Both the position numbers and the translations under genes were made by a program. DNA of 64,000 nt from contig JBAZEH010000004.1 of assembly GCA_041653955.1 (NCBI GenBank), positions 5,191-69,190 on the forward strand. Direction: 5' to 3'. Source of the stretch: Candidatus Omnitrophota bacterium (GTDB lineage Bacteria > Omnitrophota > Gorgyraeia > Gygaellales > Profunditerraquicolaceae). Below, in pieces: positions 1,732 to 44,136 of the stretch. The notes beneath the pieces are model-generated. The model did no database searches and was not told the origin of the DNA. It worked only from the letters and a program-made list of their open reading frames with translations. Numbering within the stretch: the stretch's first letter is position 1; every line of letters starts with the position of its first letter.

Positions 1732-1736
1732 GGCCA

Positions 1737-1827
1737 CGGTTTATGGAGCGTAAGCGACATAAACCGCAAGGCCAAGCTTACACCGGGCATTTTTAAGAAA
1801 CACAAAGTTGTTCAAAAATGCCCGGTG
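1737..1827 (+). promoter_or_regulatory. two stem-loops (9-bp stem at 1737-1766; 14-bp perfect stem caccgggcattttt/aaaaatgcccggtg at 1781-1827) in the 136-nt rpsJ-rplC spacer
   Basis: Perfect inverted repeats read directly in the sequence; there is no U-tract after them. Confidence 0.5.
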
Positions 1828-1867
1828 TTGAGGGATGAATAAACAAGATTAGAGGGTAATATATAAT

Positions 1868-2494: not shown

Positions 2495-3120
2495 TGGTAA
2501 CCTTACCTATATATAATACAGAAGGAAAAGAGATAGATACCCATAAACTTGACGGGATATTTGACGGCAAGGTGAATAAGGATATATTACACCAGGCGAT
2601 AACGGCTTACAGGGCTAATCAGAGAAGAGGGTTGGCTGCCGTAAAGACGATGGGTGAAGTCTCGGGAGGCGGACGCAAGCCATGGAAACAGAAAGGCACA
2701 GGGCGCGCCAGGGCAGGCTCCATACGTTCTCCTTTGTGGAGGCACGGAGGGGTTGTATTCGGCCCTATCCCCAGAGATTTCTCATATACGATACCCGAGA
2801 AAATAAAGAAGCTGGCGCTATTGTCGGCCCTGAACGCCAAGATAAATGAGAGTAACTTTATGCTCATTGACGCCTTGAAGTTAGAGCAGCCCAAGACAAA
2901 GGAAGCGGCCAAGGTTTTATCCAATCTTAAGATAAAGGGGGTCAAGGCCCTTTTATTGCTTGAAAAAGCGGAACAGAAAGTAAAGATAGCTTCGCGCAAT
3001 ATAGATACTTTAACTATTAACCAGGCGCAGGATACCAACGCATACGAGGTCTTATCGGTTAAGAAGATAGTCGTTACCAAAGAAGCGCTGCGCGCGTTAA
3101 CGAGCAGGTTAAAAAGATGA
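2494..3120 (+). CDS. rplD: 50S ribosomal protein L4
   Basis: 208 aa; L4 family; start overlaps the rplC stop. Confidence 0.93.
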   Translation: MVTLPIYNTEGKEIDTHKLDGIFDGKVNKDILHQAITAYRANQRRGLAAVKTMGEVSGGGRKPWKQKGTGRARAGSIRSPLWRHGGVVFGPIPRDFSYTIPEKIKKLALLSALNAKINESNFMLIDALKLEQPKTKEAAKVLSNLKIKGVKALLLLEKAEQKVKIASRNIDTLTINQAQDTNAYEVLSVKKIVVTKEALRALTSRLKR

Positions 3121-3398
3121 ATCGTTTGTCGCATGAAATAATAAAAGCATTATTAAGGACCGAAAAATCTACTTTATACGAGCCATACGGCCAGTATCTT
3201 TTTCTGGTGGATAAGGCGGCGAACAAGATACAGATAAAGAAAGCTGTGGAAGAGATATATAAGGTCAAGGTAAAGACGGTGAACACGCTTATATCGGCGG
3301 GTAAATTAAAGAAGGTCAGGTACCAGATAGGGAAAACCCCGGATACCAAACAAGCGATAGTCACCTTAAAAGAAGGGCAAAAGATAGCAACCGCGTAA
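3117..3398 (+). CDS. rplW: 50S ribosomal protein L23
   Basis: 93 aa; L23 family; 4-nt overlap with rplD. Confidence 0.92.
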   Translation: MNRLSHEIIKALLRTEKSTLYEPYGQYLFLVDKAANKIQIKKAVEEIYKVKVKTVNTLISAGKLKKVRYQIGKTPDTKQAIVTLKEGQKIATA

Positions 3399-4241: not shown

Positions 4242-4529
4242 ATGCCACGCTCGCTTAAAAAAGGTCCTTTTGTAGAAGGAAGATTGGTAGAGAAGGCTGA
4301 AAGAGCAAGACGCTCCGGAGTGCGCCAGGCGATCAAGACCTGGTCAAGGCGTTCAACGATACTTCCGGATTTTGTCGGCTTGACCTTCGCGGTACATGAC
4401 GGGAAAAAACATGTCCCTGTTTTTATAACGGAAAATATGGTCGGGCATAAATTAGGGGAGATGGCCCCCAGCCGCATATTCAGGAAACACGGCGGCGTCA
4501 AAGCTAAGAAGGCCGCAGATAAAACCTAA
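4242..4529 (+). CDS. rpsS: 30S ribosomal protein S19
   Basis: 95 aa; [11 protein letters not shown]... canonical S19. Confidence 0.96.
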
Positions 4530-4535
4530 AATAAA

Positions 4536-4874
4536 ATGATAGCAAAAGCGCAGGTAAAATTCATAAGGATATCACCCGTAAAGGTAAGGCAGGTAATAGA
4601 GCTGATACGCCATAAGGATGTCGCAACCGCCATAGCCCTGCTTAATAATATCAATAAGGGCCCGCGCGCCCATTTATTGAAGATATTAAAACAGGCCTCC
4701 GCTAACGCGAAGGTCAAAGGTTTTGGCCCGGAGAAGCTTTATATATCCAAGCTGATCTGCGATGAGGGCCCAAGATGGAAAAGGTTCAAGGCGGCCGCAT
4801 TCGGAAGGGCGTCTTCTATCAGGAAAAGGACATCGCATATAAATATAGAGCTTGATATTAAGCCCGGGGCTTAA
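4536..4874 (+). CDS. rplV: 50S ribosomal protein L22
   Basis: 112 aa; L22 family. Confidence 0.93.
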   Translation: MIAKAQVKFIRISPVKVRQVIELIRHKDVATAIALLNNINKGPRAHLLKILKQASANAKVKGFGPEKLYISKLICDEGPRWKRFKAAAFGRASSIRKRTSHINIELDIKPGA

Positions 4875-4990
4875 ATACCCGAACTTAATTGAGAGTTCGG
4901 TATGCCCTTTCTGGGCTAATACCCGAATTTAATTGAGAGTTCGGTATGCCCTTTCTGGGCTAATACCCGAATTTAATTGAGAGTTCGGTA
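4872..4990 (+). repeat. direct tandem repeat, 2.7 copies of a 43-46-nt unit (copy starts 4872, 4918, 4961), each with an internal hairpin (ccgaa[c/t]t...agttcgg); fills the rplV-rpsC spacer
   Basis: Units taa(a)tacccgaa[c/t]ttaattgagagttcggtatgccctttctgggc read directly; the first copy begins at the rplV stop codon. Confidence 0.9.
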
Positions 4991-5015
4991 TACGCTACTG
5001 CGTAAGGAGTAATTA

Positions 5016-6355: not shown

Positions 6356-6637
6356 ATGAGCAAAAGAAGAAGTTTCACGGGAGAGGTTGTCTCGGATAAG
6401 ATGCAGAAAACGATCATCGTCAGGGTCATGCAGATGAGCAAGCACCCTAAGTACGGAAGGATCGTCAAGAAATATAATAAATTCAAGGCGCACGATGAGA
6501 AGAATACCGCCAGGACAGGCGATGTGGTAAAGATAGAAGAGACCAGGCCTCTGTCAAAAGATAAGCGTTTCAGGTTTATAGGGGTGGTCAGAAAAGCCGA
6601 GATACCTCATGTTAACATTAAGGAGCAGGCAGAATGA
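6356..6637 (+). CDS. rpsQ: 30S ribosomal protein S17
   Basis: 93 aa; S17 OB-fold family. Confidence 0.93.
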   Translation: MSKRRSFTGEVVSDKMQKTIIVRVMQMSKHPKYGRIVKKYNKFKAHDEKNTARTGDVVKIEETRPLSKDKRFRFIGVVRKAEIPHVNIKEQAE

Positions 6638-8081: not shown

Positions 8082-8111
8082 TAAATAAAACAATAAGGAA
8101 TTGGGGGCAAA

Positions 8112-8507
8112 ATGTCTCGGACTGATCTGATCGCAGATACTTTTACTATGATCCGCAACGCCATTATGGCGAAAAAGGAAAACCTGGATGTACCCGCATC
8201 CAAACAGTTGACCTCTATCCTGGATATAATTAAAAAAGAGGGGTATATAGATAATTTTAAGCTTGTAGACGATAAGAAGCGCGGATACCTTAGGGTATAT
8301 TTAAAGTACGTTATGGGCAAATCCGCGATAAAGAGCATAAAACGGGTATCAAGGCCGGGGTTACGCGTATACGTGAATCACGGGAAGATCCCGCGCGTTT
8401 TAAGGGGTAAAGGGCTTGCGATTATCTCTACCTCTAAAGGCGTTATGACCGATGACGATGCCAGAAAATCAGGATTAGGCGGAGAAGTCATCGGGTATAT
8501 ATGGTAA
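8112..8507 (+). CDS. rpsH: 30S ribosomal protein S8
   Basis: 131 aa; S8 family. Confidence 0.94.
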   Translation: MSRTDLIADTFTMIRNAIMAKKENLDVPASKQLTSILDIIKKEGYIDNFKLVDDKKRGYLRVYLKYVMGKSAIKSIKRVSRPGLRVYVNHGKIPRVLRGKGLAIISTSKGVMTDDDARKSGLGGEVIGYIW

Positions 8508-12376: not shown

Positions 12377-13120
12377 ATGATCCCTATCAAATCCGACGAA
12401 GAACTGAAAATGTTTGAAAAGTCGGGAAGGATACTCGCCAGGGTAATGGGGGGATTAAGAAGGGCCGTGAAGAGCGGCATCTCTACGATAGAGATCGACC
12501 TGCTGGCGCAGGAGATGATGGAACGCGAAGGTTCCTCATCGGCCTTTAAGGGGTATAACGGATTTCCGGCGAACATATGCGTTTCCGTGAATGAAGAAGT
12601 TGTGCACGGGATACCCGGGGAGAGGGTCCTTAAAGACGGCGATATGGTAAGCCTGGATGTAGGTATAAATTACAAGGGTTATCTATCCGACTCCGCCATT
12701 ACTGTCGCGGTGGGGCGCATAGACCCGGCCAGAAAAAAGCTCATTGAGGTAACTAGAAGGTCTTTGATAGAAGGGATAAAGCAGGCGCGTATAGATAACT
12801 ATATGTCGGATATATCCCATGCCATACAGTCATACGTAGAGAGAAACGGTTTCTCGGTTGTAAGGCAGTTTGTCGGGCACGGCATAGGGTATGACCTGCA
12901 TGAAGAGCCCCAGATACCTAATTTCGGCAAGCCCAACCGCGGCGAGATACTGAAAAAAGGTATGTTATTGGCGATTGAGCCGATGGTTAATATGGGGGCA
13001 TGGGAGTGCGAACTGCTTGATAACGGCTGGACCGCCGTGACAAAGGACGGTTTACCGTCGGCGCATTTTGAGCATACGGTAGCGGTCACGGAACGCGGGC
13101 CCAGGATATTGACCGATTAA
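12377..13120 (+). CDS. map: methionine aminopeptidase type I
   Basis: 247 aa; M24A family metal-binding residues. Confidence 0.95.
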   Translation: MIPIKSDEELKMFEKSGRILARVMGGLRRAVKSGISTIEIDLLAQEMMEREGSSSAFKGYNGFPANICVSVNEEVVHGIPGERVLKDGDMVSLDVGINYKGYLSDSAITVAVGRIDPARKKLIEVTRRSLIEGIKQARIDNYMSDISHAIQSYVERNGFSVVRQFVGHGIGYDLHEEPQIPNFGKPNRGEILKKGMLLAIEPMVNMGAWECELLDNGWTAVTKDGLPSAHFEHTVAVTERGPRILTD

Positions 13121-29223: not shown

Positions 29224-29733
29224 TTGATGCTCGCGATATTTTTGATCATAGCAGGAATACTATTAAGAGTTGCGCCGCATTCCCCTAATTTTACTCCCGT
29301 CGCTGCAATAGCGCTTTTTGGCGGCTGCTACCTTAGAAAAAAATACGCCCTTATCGTGCCTCTGGCGTTAATGATCGTCAGCGACCTGGCGATAGGCCTG
29401 CATGACGTATTTATCTTTACCTGGGGCGGTTTTCTCCTGGTCAGCATGATCGGCCTTTGGTTAAAAAACCATAAAGGCGTATCCACAACTGTATCCGCAT
29501 CATTAGTTTCTTCCGTCATATTTTATATAGTATCTAATTTCGGAGTATGGCTCATGGGTTATTATCCGCGTAACCCCGCGGGGCTCATCAGCTGTTATGC
29601 AATGGCCCTGCCGTTTTTACGCGCCTTTACATTTTCAACATTGTTTTACACAGCGGTATTTTTCGGCATATACGAATTGACCGCTTATTTTGTCAAAGAT
29701 ACAAAGTTATCCAAAGTTCTTTTAACGAATTAA
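29224..29733 (+). CDS. small five-TM membrane protein of unknown function (possibly an ECF-S/DUF6580-like substrate-binding component) inside the B12 locus
   Basis: 169 aa, highly hydrophobic; own promoter; location between cobO and the riboswitch/btuB. Confidence 0.4.
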   Translation: MMLAIFLIIAGILLRVAPHSPNFTPVAAIALFGGCYLRKKYALIVPLALMIVSDLAIGLHDVFIFTWGGFLLVSMIGLWLKNHKGVSTTVSASLVSSVIFYIVSNFGVWLMGYYPRNPAGLISCYAMALPFLRAFTFSTLFYTAVFFGIYELTAYFVKDTKLSKVLLTN

Positions 29734-29742
29734 CAGTTATAT

Positions 29743-29885
29743 AGGATAGGGAAGGCCGTAAAAGCGGCCGCAGTCCCGCTGCTGTATAAGGGTACGAAAG
29801 CCCCAAGGGCCACTGGCAAAGATGCTGGGAAGGTCGGGCGAGTAGGATGATCCTTGAGCCAGAAGACCTGCCTATATAGAGGTAC
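29743..29885 (+). promoter_or_regulatory. cobalamin (AdoCbl) riboswitch aptamer
   Basis: GGGAAGGCCGTAAAAGCGGCCGCAGTCCCGCTGCTGT core, B12 box GCCACTG at 29809-29815, 3' GAGCCAGAAGACCTGCC, upstream of a TonB-dependent receptor gene. Confidence 0.85.
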
Positions 29886-29923
29886 GTGCCTCGCGGACAA
29901 GGGCGAAGATGAAATCAGGGTGC

Positions 29924-29970
29924 AGCCCCGAAAAAACAAAAATTATTTTTGTTTTTTTCGGGGTTTTTTA
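29924..29970 (+). terminator. intrinsic terminator serving as the riboswitch expression platform
   Basis: ccccgaaaaaacaaaa...ttttgtttttttcgggg stem followed by TTTTTT, 24 nt before the btuB-like ATG. Confidence 0.8.
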
Positions 29971-29993
29971 TTGTCCGGGAAAGGAAAGAAGCA

Positions 29994-32066
29994 ATGCGCG
30001 GCAAAGTAGCAGGAGGTATCTGTATCACAGTATTGCTGGTATCAAGCTTATGGGCAGCAGAGGAAACGCCGGTAGCAGCGTTGGATAAAATAGTAGTTAC
30101 TCCGTATCGTTATGCGGAATCATTAGGAAAAACAGTATCAAGTATTACCGTAATAACTTCGGATGAAATAAAGAATTCTAATGCTGAAAAAGTTATCGAT
30201 ATCCTTAGGCCAGTTCCTGGATTGGTAGTAAGAGATTGGTATGGTAATGGCACAAAAGCATCTGTTGATATGGCGGGGTTTGGCGAACAAGGGGGCTTAA
30301 ATGTCTTAGTCTTGATAGACGGGAGGCGCGCGAATGACGTTGATTTAAGCGGAGTCGACTGGAACCAAATCCCATTAGAACAGGTAGAACGGATTGAAAT
30401 CATACGTGGCGGCTCTGCAGCAGTATTATATGGGGACAACGCTTCGTCAGGAGTAATTAATATAATAACTAAAAAAGGTTCGGGAAAACCTACAGTCAAT
30501 ATCAAGACTCAATACGGCAGCTATGATACGCATAAAGAGAGCCTTTCCTTGGGCGGAGAGATTAATGATAAATTCTCGTATATGTTTAATGCTGGGCAGG
30601 GAGCAACCCATGGTTACCGCGATAACAGCTATGAGAAAACTACTGACTTTTCATCAAAACTTGAGCATAAGTTTACCGACGCTTTATCTGTACATTTCAA
30701 TTCTGGTTTTCATACCTCATCCTATGGTATGCCTGCTTCCTTATGGCAGGAGTATATAGACGCGCATAATAGGAGATACTCGAAACATGCCGATGATCAT
30801 GCTAACAACAAAGACTATTATTTTATCGTAGGAGGTAAGGCTGATTTTTCATCTTTGGGCGGGATAGATATCGATTTTAGCTACCGTGAAAAGACTACTA
30901 ATTCGTTTTTTCTGACCTCTGGCCTGAATACACAGAAAAACAGGATAAGAACCTTTGGCGTAACCCCAAAATATACATTGGGTAATAGCATCTTAGGCCG
31001 TGATAACAAGCTAATAGCAGGCATTGATTATTATCAGGCTAATTATCGTTCGGATAGGTTCAGTCTTACAAAAGATGATGATCCCAAAAGTTATAGTCGC
31101 GTCAATAAGACTTCTGTAGGCACTTATCTGCAAGACGAGTTTTCTATTTTTGACAAGCTGACTCTGACAGGCGGTTATCGGAGGGAAGCAGTACGCTACG
31201 CTTTAGGCTATCACGATTTTAGCTTTTATAACCCCGATATCGACACAAGCGTCAAGCCCAAGAAAGAGATATTCAATACAGGGCTCGTGTATAATTACGC
31301 AAAGGGATCCAGCGCATTTTTTAATGCCGGAAAGAGTTTCCGTTTTCCTGAAGTCGATGAGTTTACATACAATGATGCTTCGTGGCAGCAGAGACTAAAT
31401 ACTGACCTTAAGCCACAGACTTCTATGAACTACCAGATAGGGGCAAGGCATAAGTTTTCAGACATCTTGAAGTGCGACTTATCTATATATAGGATGTATG
31501 TAAAGGACGAGATCTATTATGATCCTAAGTCTTTCACGGATTTTTGGGGTTCATGGATGGGTAAGAACACAAATTATGACAAAACTATTCATGAAGGCGT
31601 CGAGGCTTCTTTTAATGCGAAGATTAGTGAAAAAATAGATCTTATGGGTAATTACGCGTTGACCAAGGCGTATTTTGACGGAGGCCAATATGATAATAAC
31701 GATATACCTATGGTTCCTAGGCATAAGGGGAGCGTAGGGATGACATTCTCGCTATCTAAGGATATTTCTCTTAATGTAATAGGAAACTATGTAGGCAAAA
31801 GGTATTTCCTGAATGATCAGGCCAATGATTATTCTCGTCTTAATGGCTATATGACGGCCGATACTAACCTTATCTGGCGCTATAAAGACCTGGTAATAGC
31901 TTTTGGAATAAACAATATCTTTGATAGGAAATATTCTGAATATGCAGGAGTAATTATTGATAATACCTGGGAGCCTTGTAGCGGCTTAACGTGGCCTGCG
32001 GGCACAAAGTTTTATTATCCTTCAGCAGGCAGGAATTTCTCAATCAGAATGGATTATAAATTCTAA
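29994..32066 (+). CDS. TonB-dependent outer-membrane receptor, BtuB-like (start at MRGKVAGG with signal peptide)
   Basis: Plug domain plus 22-strand barrel; ends in a C-terminal aromatic residue (F); sits downstream of the B12 riboswitch. Confidence 0.88.
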   Translation: MRGKVAGGICITVLLVSSLWAAEETPVAALDKIVVTPYRYAESLGKTVSSITVITSDEIKNSNAEKVIDILRPVPGLVVRDWYGNGTKASVDMAGFGEQGGLNVLVLIDGRRANDVDLSGVDWNQIPLEQVERIEIIRGGSAAVLYGDNASSGVINIITKKGSGKPTVNIKTQYGSYDTHKESLSLGGEINDKFSYMFNAGQGATHGYRDNSYEKTTDFSSKLEHKFTDALSVHFNSGFHTSSYGMPASLWQEYIDAHNRRYSKHADDHANNKDYYFIVGGKADFSSLGGIDIDFSYREKTTNSFFLTSGLNTQKNRIRTFGVTPKYTLGNSILGRDNKLIAGIDYYQANYRSDRFSLTKDDDPKSYSRVNKTSVGTYLQDEFSIFDKLTLTGGYRREAVRYALGYHDFSFYNPDIDTSVKPKKEIFNTGLVYNYAKGSSAFFNAGKSFRFPEVDEFTYNDASWQQRLNTDLKPQTSMNYQIGARHKFSDILKCDLSIYRMYVKDEIYYDPKSFTDFWGSWMGKNTNYDKTIHEGVEASFNAKISEKIDLMGNYALTKAYFDGGQYDNNDIPMVPRHKGSVGMTFSLSKDISLNVIGNYVGKRYFLNDQANDYSRLNGYMTADTNLIWRYKDLVIAFGINNIFDRKYSEYAGVIIDNTWEPCSGLTWPAGTKFYYPSAGRNFSIRMDYKF

Positions 32067-32072
32067 CTTTTC

Positions 32073-32115
32073 TGGGACAGCCGTTACTTTTTATAAAAAA
32101 GTAGTGGCTGTCCCC
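32073..32115 (+). terminator. imperfect stem-loop after the receptor gene
   Basis: gggacagccgttacttttt..aaaaagtagtggctgtccc with two mismatches. Confidence 0.45.
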
Positions 32116-44065: not shown

Positions 44066-44136
44066 GCGGGTGTAATTCAGTGGTAGAATGACAGCTTCCC
44101 AAGCTGTATATGGCGGTTCGATTCCGCTCACCCGCT
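44066..44136 (+). tRNA. tRNA-Gly (anticodon CCC)
   Basis: gcgggtg acceptor stem, D-arm tcagtggtagaa, anticodon loop ttCCCaa, T-arm ggttcgattcc, 3' cacccgc; no encoded CCA. Confidence 0.88.

Follow-up and report, generated by a model that had tools for sequence, protein, structure and literature searches.

Two hairpins between rpsJ and rplC in an Omnitrophota genome: probably one unit of a dispersed, REP/MITE-like palindromic repeat family

The 64-kb stretch of DNA analysed here (the window), which L3-based searches place in Candidatus Omnitrophota, carries tuf (216-1418), rpsJ (1426-1731) and rplC (1868-2494) head to tail on the + strand, and the stop codon TAA of rpsJ (1729-1731) is separated from the start of rplC at 1868 by a spacer of 136 nt (1732-1867). 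The original prediction placed a 9-bp and a 14-bp stem in this spacer and offered for them an autoregulatory leader of the L4 or L3 type, an RNA processing site or a small embedded structured RNA. What these two hairpins are, and why they stand between the genes for ribosomal proteins S10 and L3, is the question addressed here. The comparisons described below make it probable that positions 1732-1828 constitute one unit of a dispersed, orientation-independent palindromic repeat family of one Omnitrophota clade, which resembles the REP, REPIN and MITE elements of other bacteria.

Architecture of the rpsJ-rplC spacer

Both stems are present in the sequence. Folding of 1732-1867 with RNAfold gave a strongly structured spacer with a minimum free energy (MFE) of -52.6 kcal/mol as compared with -25.5 +/- 3.2 kcal/mol for 200 dinucleotide shuffles (z = -8.4), none of which was as stable, and the minus strand folds equally well (-50.1 kcal/mol, z = -8.4). 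The first hairpin, module A (1732-1773, + strand), spans 42 nt and comprises 15 pairs in a 4+9+2 bp arrangement. Its outer clamp pairs GGCC (1732-1735) with GGCC (1770-1773), its 9-bp stem pairs cggtttatg (1737-1745) with cataaaccg (1758-1766), and between the two lie bulges of one nucleotide on the 5' side (A1736) and three on the 3' side (CAA, 1767-1769). At the apex a GC/GC helix (1748-1749 with 1754-1755) carries a GUAA tetraloop (1750-1753), and G1746-A1747 face G1756-A1757, the whole reading GA-GC-GUAA-GC-GA. The linker AAGCTTA (1774-1780, + strand), for which the flank table and the orthologue alignment give the family consensus GAA(C/T)TTA, leads into the second hairpin, module B (1780-1828, + strand), which was recovered both by the fold and by the inverted-repeat search. 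Its arms are caccgggcattttt (1781-1794) and aaaaatgcccggtg (1814-1827). The predicted 14-bp stem is indeed perfect, but it is really 15 bp long, for A1780, the last base of the linker, pairs with T1828 (1780-1794 with 1814-1828), and the 3' arm implied by the prediction was off by up to one base. The 19-nt loop (1795-1813) contains a small inner AAC/GUU stem, and the hairpin as a whole is the longest inverted repeat of the entire window. Its 5' arm begins with CACC, as in most family copies, while the loop motif AAGACAAAGT/ACACAAAGTT is common to the window and two relatives, L068 and L069.

The remaining tail (1829-1867, + strand) contains the ribosome-binding region of rplC, with GAGGG at 1852-1856, 11 nt 5' of the ATG at 1868; positions 1833-1867 are unpaired in the MFE structure and the Shine-Dalgarno sequence is predicted to be free. 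No T-run follows either stem, the sequence 3' of 1773 being AAGCTTA and that 3' of 1828 being TGAGGGATG, and both hairpins are missing from the terminator-like sites reported by the terminator scan, in agreement with the earlier remark that they do not resemble an intrinsic terminator. The tail also includes a sigma-70-like match (TAAACA-16-TATAAT, 1840-1867, + strand, 10/12) ending one base before the ATG of rplC, which is probably due to chance, since the region has fewer promoter-like sites than shuffled sequences (12 versus 17).

A search of the whole window against Rfam 15 at gathering thresholds, ribosomal protein leader models included, returned no match in the spacer and found only a cobalamin riboswitch (RF00174, 91 bits, 29700-29889, + strand), located upstream of a 705-aa ORF (29949-32066), and a tRNA gene (RF00005, 69.5 bits, 44066-44136, + strand). 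The riboswitch is followed by a hairpin with a T-run (29926-29963, CCCCGAAAAAACAAAAAT/ATTTTTGTTTTTTTCGGGG), and the 705-aa ORF by a strong hairpin at 32074-32114. When the E-value limit was relaxed to 10 for positions 1300-2300, only sub-threshold miRNA-like noise was obtained. The window contains no further copies of either hairpin arm beyond those expected by chance. Scanning IMG/VR with a degenerate pattern of tip and stem gave 15 pattern matches, none of which was accepted by the covariance model, and no Omnitrophota repeats of such kind were found in literature searches. The kind of element is well known; the repeat family itself, its placement from stop to start codon and its abundance in ribosomal protein operons appear to be new.

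Distribution of the repeat family in Omnitrophota

The census of S10-L3 spacers covered 92 non-redundant Omnitrophota loci (S10 identity of at least 85%). In 57 of them the spacer does not exceed 30 nt, and the median is 25 nt (typically TAAATCAAAAACGGATAAA...ATG), so the expectation that this spacer is normally short holds within the phylum. Spacers longer than 60 nt occur at 32 loci and are heterogeneous: about a dozen carry the window-type element, others contain tandem or palindromic low-complexity repeats. A second, unrelated hairpin (CCATTCGAC...GTCGAATG) is found in about ten of the long spacers; the element in question, of the form CCATTCGAC...variable...GTCGAATGTGTC and about 65 nt long, lies inside the ancestral short spacer, between TAAATCAA and AAACGGATAAA. 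Its presence in at least ten other lineages (L013, L027, L031, L035, L086, L096, L099, L102, L110 and L134) indicates that the S10-L3 spacer has been colonised independently by different palindromic elements. Many further spacers of Omnitrophota ribosomal protein operons are expanded by different short tandem or palindromic repeats (for example GACAATAGAGCAATAT twice, ACCTAAGACCTATA twice, TTAATTGG palindromes and ACGCTGAAATT four times), as at 4452-4530, 6561-6635, 8099-8166 and 10199-10280 of L071, at 2930-3000 of L003 and in the S10-L3 spacers of L017/L115 and L036.

The lineages closest to the window by L3 identity, namely L067 (87%), L068 (85%), L069 (82%) and L071 (80%), have S10-L3 spacers of 123-170 nt with the same two-hairpin architecture, whereas L070 (79%) has essentially no spacer at all. 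In the four-way alignment on the window structure 97.4% of the cells are paired and 13 of the 30 pairs are changed on both sides, values reached by none of 500 shuffles, and pairing drops to about 30-43% when the partners are slid by 1-3 columns. Module B alone shows two-sided change in 6 of its 15 pairs. A lack of stem conservation or covariation in relatives had been named beforehand as the outcome that would speak against the hairpins; instead, the stems of the window copy and its orthologues are perfect at an L3 protein divergence of 13-18%, with many two-sided pair changes. On the + (mRNA) strand the B hairpins of the orthologues contain several G-U pairs and no A-C mismatches, a weak hint of constraint at the RNA level.

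Copies elsewhere were sought with a profile and two covariance models of module A, the second of which (R2) was built from 17 copies, leaving out the window and its three S10-L3 orthologues. Model R2 nevertheless recovered 1732-1773 (+ strand) with 38.6 bits (E ~9e-9) as the only strong match in 64 kb, and R1 scored module A at 52.3 bits; with filters off, the searches of the window gave this one strong match and a marginal one within a tandem repeat at 4874-4991. The latter occupies the 141-nt rplV-rpsC spacer and comprises 2.7 copies, at 98% identity, of a 44-nt unit. This unit has two small hairpins, ATACC(C)GAAyTTAATTGAGAGTTCGGTAT and GCCCTTTCTGGGC, and contains CCGAAYTTAATT, which resembles the family linkers; the marginal R2 match lies at 4913-4951 on the minus strand (18.6 bits, E 0.008), and in L068 the corresponding site holds one incomplete unit (CGGTATGCCCTTGTTGGGC).

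When the model matches were mapped to genes, module A was found in several kinds of spacer of about 14 genomes and on both strands. It occurs between rpsJ and rplC in 13 genomes and, besides this site, in at least eight kinds of intergenic spacer, non-ribosomal ones included: fusA-tuf (L003, L071, L075), rplW-rplB (L032, L113, L118), rpsS-rplV and the spacer following rplV (L081, L082), rplF-rplR (L069), rplO-secY (L068, and L069 with an array of three tandem units at 12496-12774), as well as the non-ribosomal leuD-leuB (leuD-like/isopropylmalate dehydrogenase) and tonB-rpsU spacers of L153. Since L153 is the next 21 kb of the contig of L069, about nine copies of module A are present in 36.5 kb of a single relative's contig, as against one clear copy in the 64-kb window. 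Roughly half of all copies are antisense to the operon. This holds even at the S10-L3 site, where the spacer of L081 is the reverse complement of the entire unit of L085 (local alignment score of 105 in reverse complement versus 26 forward). Copies within a genome also resemble one another, the S10-L3 copy of L069 and that at 7911-7954 of L153 both having the unusual stem CAACTTAGC. In the metagenome contig L082 (1-664) the gene order runs from rplV through an element directly to rplC, so that rpsC and the remaining genes of the usual series are missing, and a further copy lies 5' of rplV; the contig has probably been misassembled across the repeat.

Element anatomy, empty sites and maintenance of the palindromes

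Read in element orientation, a unit begins with the flank and tip tTAA(G/A)TGA and the clamp GSNC, followed by A, the stem YAAMTTAYG, the apical GA-GC...variable...GC-GA, the complementary stem, NTG and the second half of the clamp; the linker GAAYTTA then leads to hairpin B, which is near-perfect and starts with YMCC, but is otherwise variable in sequence, with subfamilies, and differs almost wholly from copy to copy. Full elements of about 170-190 nt, as at 10970-11152 of L069, 1178-1366 of L003 and 3054-3232 and 4831-5000 of L071, read TAA, GTGAG-clamp-A hairpin, GAAYTTA, variable B hairpin, TTAATTC, inverted A hairpin-clamp-CTCAT, TAA. Two inverted hairpins of conserved sequence thus flank a centre in which chiefly the pairing is preserved, and the ends form terminal inverted repeats, GTGAGsnCAyAAmTTAyGGA on the left and the reverse complement of this sequence (...CTCAT) on the right. 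In the window the copy consists of one forward unit of A, linker and B (1732-1828); it represents the left end only, not a doublet, and the spacer tail (1829-1867) occupies the place of the second, inverted A hairpin of the full-length elements.

Elements are placed exactly from the stop codon to the start codon of their neighbours in co-directional operons. Forward units supply the upstream gene with its stop codon, the TAA or TGA of the tip, and in reversed units 0-6 nt separate TCAYTTAA from the ATG downstream. The rpsJ 3' end of the window, ttaagTAA (1724-1731, + strand), aligns with the outer flank and tip motif TTAA(G/A)TGA, which stands 5' of hairpin A in nearly all copies of the 28-copy flank table, the rpsJ stop codon being the counterpart of the TGA. 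The outer tip is (G/A)TGA in 25 of the 28 copies and TAA in the window; likewise, rpsJ ends with aagTGA directly 5' of the clamp in L067, L068 and L083, and with aagTAA in the window and L069.

Orthologous sites with and without the element can be compared directly. Between rplF and rplR the window and L068 have TAA-CC-ATG where L069 has TAA, a 183-nt element and ATG, and the filled site reads TAA+A where the empty one has TAA. Between leuD and leuB the TAA-C-ATG of the window corresponds to an 89-nt unit in L153, and between fusA and tuf the window and L068 have TAA-TAAGATAT... where L071 has TAA, an element and TAAAGGAGG... The window also lacks the rplO-secY elements of L069. The TAA found on both sides of full elements could stem from a 3-bp target duplication, in which respect the A-rich flanks are ambiguous.

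Several ORFs without a Pfam match lie wholly inside the repeats, at 3069-3230 (53 aa) and 4846-4956 (36 aa) of L071 and at 180-341 and 1957-2067 of L072. The start codon of these repeat-internal ORFs is the ATG of TTATGGAG within hairpin A, and in the elements at 10970-11152 of L069 and 3054-3232 of L071 the ORFs reach the TAA of CTCATTAA; they are probably spurious calls.

The variation among copies bears on the level at which the palindromes are maintained. Among 16 copies of module A, 97% of the cells are paired and 10 of the 15 pairs show two-sided changes, with 46 cells changed on both sides and a single one-sided change (G-U). Predicted folding energies favour the sense strand in forward units (by -8.0 kcal/mol in L067, -6.6 in L069, -10.4 in L083 and -6.1 in L085) and the antisense strand in reversed ones (+11.2 in L081, +3.2 in L153). 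The slight overall sense advantage (Wilcoxon p = 0.04) was considered as a sign of selection on the mRNA and rejected, because its direction follows the orientation of the element. The almost exclusively Watson-Crick changes and the orientation-linked folding fit a palindrome kept at the DNA level better than a structure selected in the mRNA. G:T and A:C mismatches are about equally frequent (24 versus 22) among all palindromes of the compared loci with stems of at least 14 matches, a set made up mostly of chance palindromes and hence uninformative on this point. Given the variants shared within genomes, some of the apparent covariation may have come about by turnover of sister copies or conversion between them, and not by stepwise compensation at a single locus.

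Interpretation and comparison with known systems

The reading we consider probable, that of a REP/REPIN/MITE-like repeat unit, would imply a family that spreads, or once spread, at the DNA level, either by a transposase acting in trans or by recombination. The copy in the window may go back to the common ancestor that its genome shares with three sequenced relatives, or it may have been renewed from sister copies. The repeat would be co-transcribed because it lies inside the S10 operon, and the resulting mRNA would form two very stable stem-loops from the first base after the rpsJ stop codon onwards. By analogy with REP/BIME, ERIC and Correia elements, such hairpins would mainly affect how stable the adjoining mRNA segments are or how they are processed. 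The hairpins would also uncouple translation of rplC from that of rpsJ, rplC having its own Shine-Dalgarno sequence in the unstructured tail, and they would sense no ribosomal protein. The family may be nearly extinct in the genome of the window, where one clear copy was found in 64 kb, its dispersal being seen in relatives only.

The autoregulatory leader put forward originally, in which L3, L4 or S10 would bind the two-hairpin RNA and repress rplC and the genes downstream by a translation block or by attenuation, has become very improbable. Its position directly upstream of rplC in the S10 operon, the strong structure, the conservation with covariation at the same site in the three closest lineages and a tandem G-A/GNRA motif resembling a protein-binding RNA feature would all suit it. 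However, Rfam leader models do not match even at E up to 10, module A also stands in the fusA-tuf, rplO-secY, leuD-leuB, tonB-rpsU and other spacers, half of the copies lie antisense to the operon, one of the pair L081 and L085 at the S10-L3 site among them, the 57 short spacers among the 92 mean that most of the phylum lacks the element, hairpin B has almost no sequence in common between copies, and the Shine-Dalgarno sequence of rplC is predicted to be free. The suggestion of a small embedded structured element or processing site came closer: the element is there, as a copy of a dispersed palindromic repeat, whereas an effect on RNA stability or processing is what such hairpins would be expected to have. 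A terminator or attenuator between rpsJ and rplC, with rplC read from a promoter in the spacer tail, is hardly credible. Two very stable GC-containing hairpins and the sigma-70-like match could be cited for it, but neither stem has a U-tract, the -10 element ends so close to the ATG that the transcript would lack the start codon region, promoter-like matches are under-represented relative to shuffles as noted above, and reversed copies abut start codons, leaving no room for a promoter. Even less can be said for a small peptide starting at the ATG of TTATGGAG (1743-1745), with 17 codons in the window and 36-56 codons across whole elements in relatives, which we regard as extremely improbable. 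Gene callers do annotate the 36- and 53-aa ORFs inside the L071 elements, and by eye an ORF runs from the hairpin-A ATG to the TAA of CTCATTAA in full elements of L069 and L071; but the orthologues do not share the start codon (L068 has ATG TAG, L067 and L069 have no ATG), by which this candidate is largely refuted, and half of the copies lie on the opposite strand, while the centre is a variable palindrome, unlike the evolution of a coding sequence.

Two further readings grant the repeat origin and differ in what the host makes of it. According to one, the spacer holds a domesticated intercistronic RNA module that punctuates the operon, its hairpins serving as processing sites for RNase III, E or Y or as barriers to 3'-exonucleases that set cistron amounts, the window copy being kept by selection. 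We consider this rather unlikely. Stems that stay perfect in four lineages despite many substitutions, G-U pairs without A-C mismatches on the mRNA strand of the orthologues' B hairpins, precise stop-to-start placement in operons, the independent expansion of many Omnitrophota ribosomal protein spacers by other hairpin-forming sequences and the known effects of REP and ERIC elements on mRNA stability (PMC3184786) argue for it; against it stand the equal frequency of both orientations, the folding asymmetry, which tracks the element and not the transcript, the Watson-Crick-only variation of module A and the presence or absence of the element at the same site among close relatives. The perfect stems at 13-18% L3 divergence could nonetheless reflect selection for a host function instead of selfish persistence. 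The other reading, which seems unlikely to a slightly greater degree, is that of a host-used intercistronic module whose A hairpin, with its ACUUA core, tandem G-A and 1x3 asymmetric bulge, would be the target of a protein of its own, either a nuclease or one that binds RNA or ssDNA, and whose delivery would be aimed at the TTAA/TAA stop-codon context, so that it would punctuate polycistronic mRNAs between stop and start codons and set cistron ratios, the S10-L3 copy being a selected, fixed instance.

Recognition of the repeat keeps a mobile or dispersed palindromic element from being annotated as a riboswitch-like ribosomal protein leader, and it illustrates that strong covariation can arise from a repeat family with its own variants in each genome. 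It also documents an apparently undescribed family in an uncultured phylum, whose elements fill spacers from stop to start and give rise to probably spurious small-ORF calls (the hairpin-A ATG) and, in at least one case (L082), probably to a misassembly. An influence of the hairpins on mRNA stability or on translational coupling, should there be one, would alter the stoichiometry of essential ribosomal proteins.

Among known systems, the ribosomal protein leaders share with the window element little more than that it is a structured, RNA-capable element in the S10 operon. The S10 leader of E. coli lies upstream of rpsJ and is bound by L4, whereas the window element is located between rpsJ and rplC, matches no Rfam leader and is neither operon- nor strand-specific. 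The likeness to the REP, REPIN and BIME elements of Proteobacteria is much closer. REPINs consist of two inverted REPs around a spacer conserved only for the hairpin, and they occur in tandem arrays, with singlets as remnants (PMC3337134); REPs are imperfect extragenic palindromes of 20-40 bp with a high copy number per genome, found between unidirectional ORFs and plausibly transcribed (PMC3733652). In the same way module A is a short, conserved, imperfect palindrome of about 42 nt that is extragenic and appears as singlets, as inverted doublets around a pairing-conserved spacer and as tandem arrays (L069, 12496-12774); it is found between co-directional genes, where it is presumably co-transcribed, has its own variants in each genome and varies in presence among relatives. 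The doublet structure of REPINs is seen in the full elements of relatives, while the window has a singlet together with the spacer hairpin. The Omnitrophota family differs from REPs in its tip, (G/A)TGA in place of the classical GTAG or CGTC tag, and in hairpins that are AT-rich in the stem core, those of REPs being GC-rich; moreover, its central spacer is an independent long hairpin, and literature searches brought up no described REPs in Omnitrophota. Nor was a RAYT gene, which REPINs have as a cognate single-copy transposase gene flanked by the repeats, found or linked: a regular expression for RAYT-like HUH/Y1 proteins (HUH...YxxNP) gave no matches among six-frame ORFs of the window and all compared loci, which is a weak test covering a small part of any genome.

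We therefore file the family as working like REP/REPIN/BIME/MITE elements, not as a proven member of any named family. From the MITEs ERIC (Enterobacteriaceae) and Correia/CREE (Neisseria) it is set apart by the absence of sequence similarity and of a known parent insertion sequence for the Omnitrophota family, and single A+B units, the window copy included, have no second inverted repeat. As in ERIC and Correia elements (PMC3184786), however, the length is 100-190 nt, the full elements have terminal inverted repeats (GTGAGsnCA... / ...TGsnCTCAT), transcribed intergenic regions hold the elements in either orientation, and the folded RNA of a whole element is one long hairpin. The likeness to MITEs may extend to the insertion sites, with TAA on both sides where they are filled and empty counterparts in relatives at rplF-rplR, leuD-leuB and fusA-tuf.
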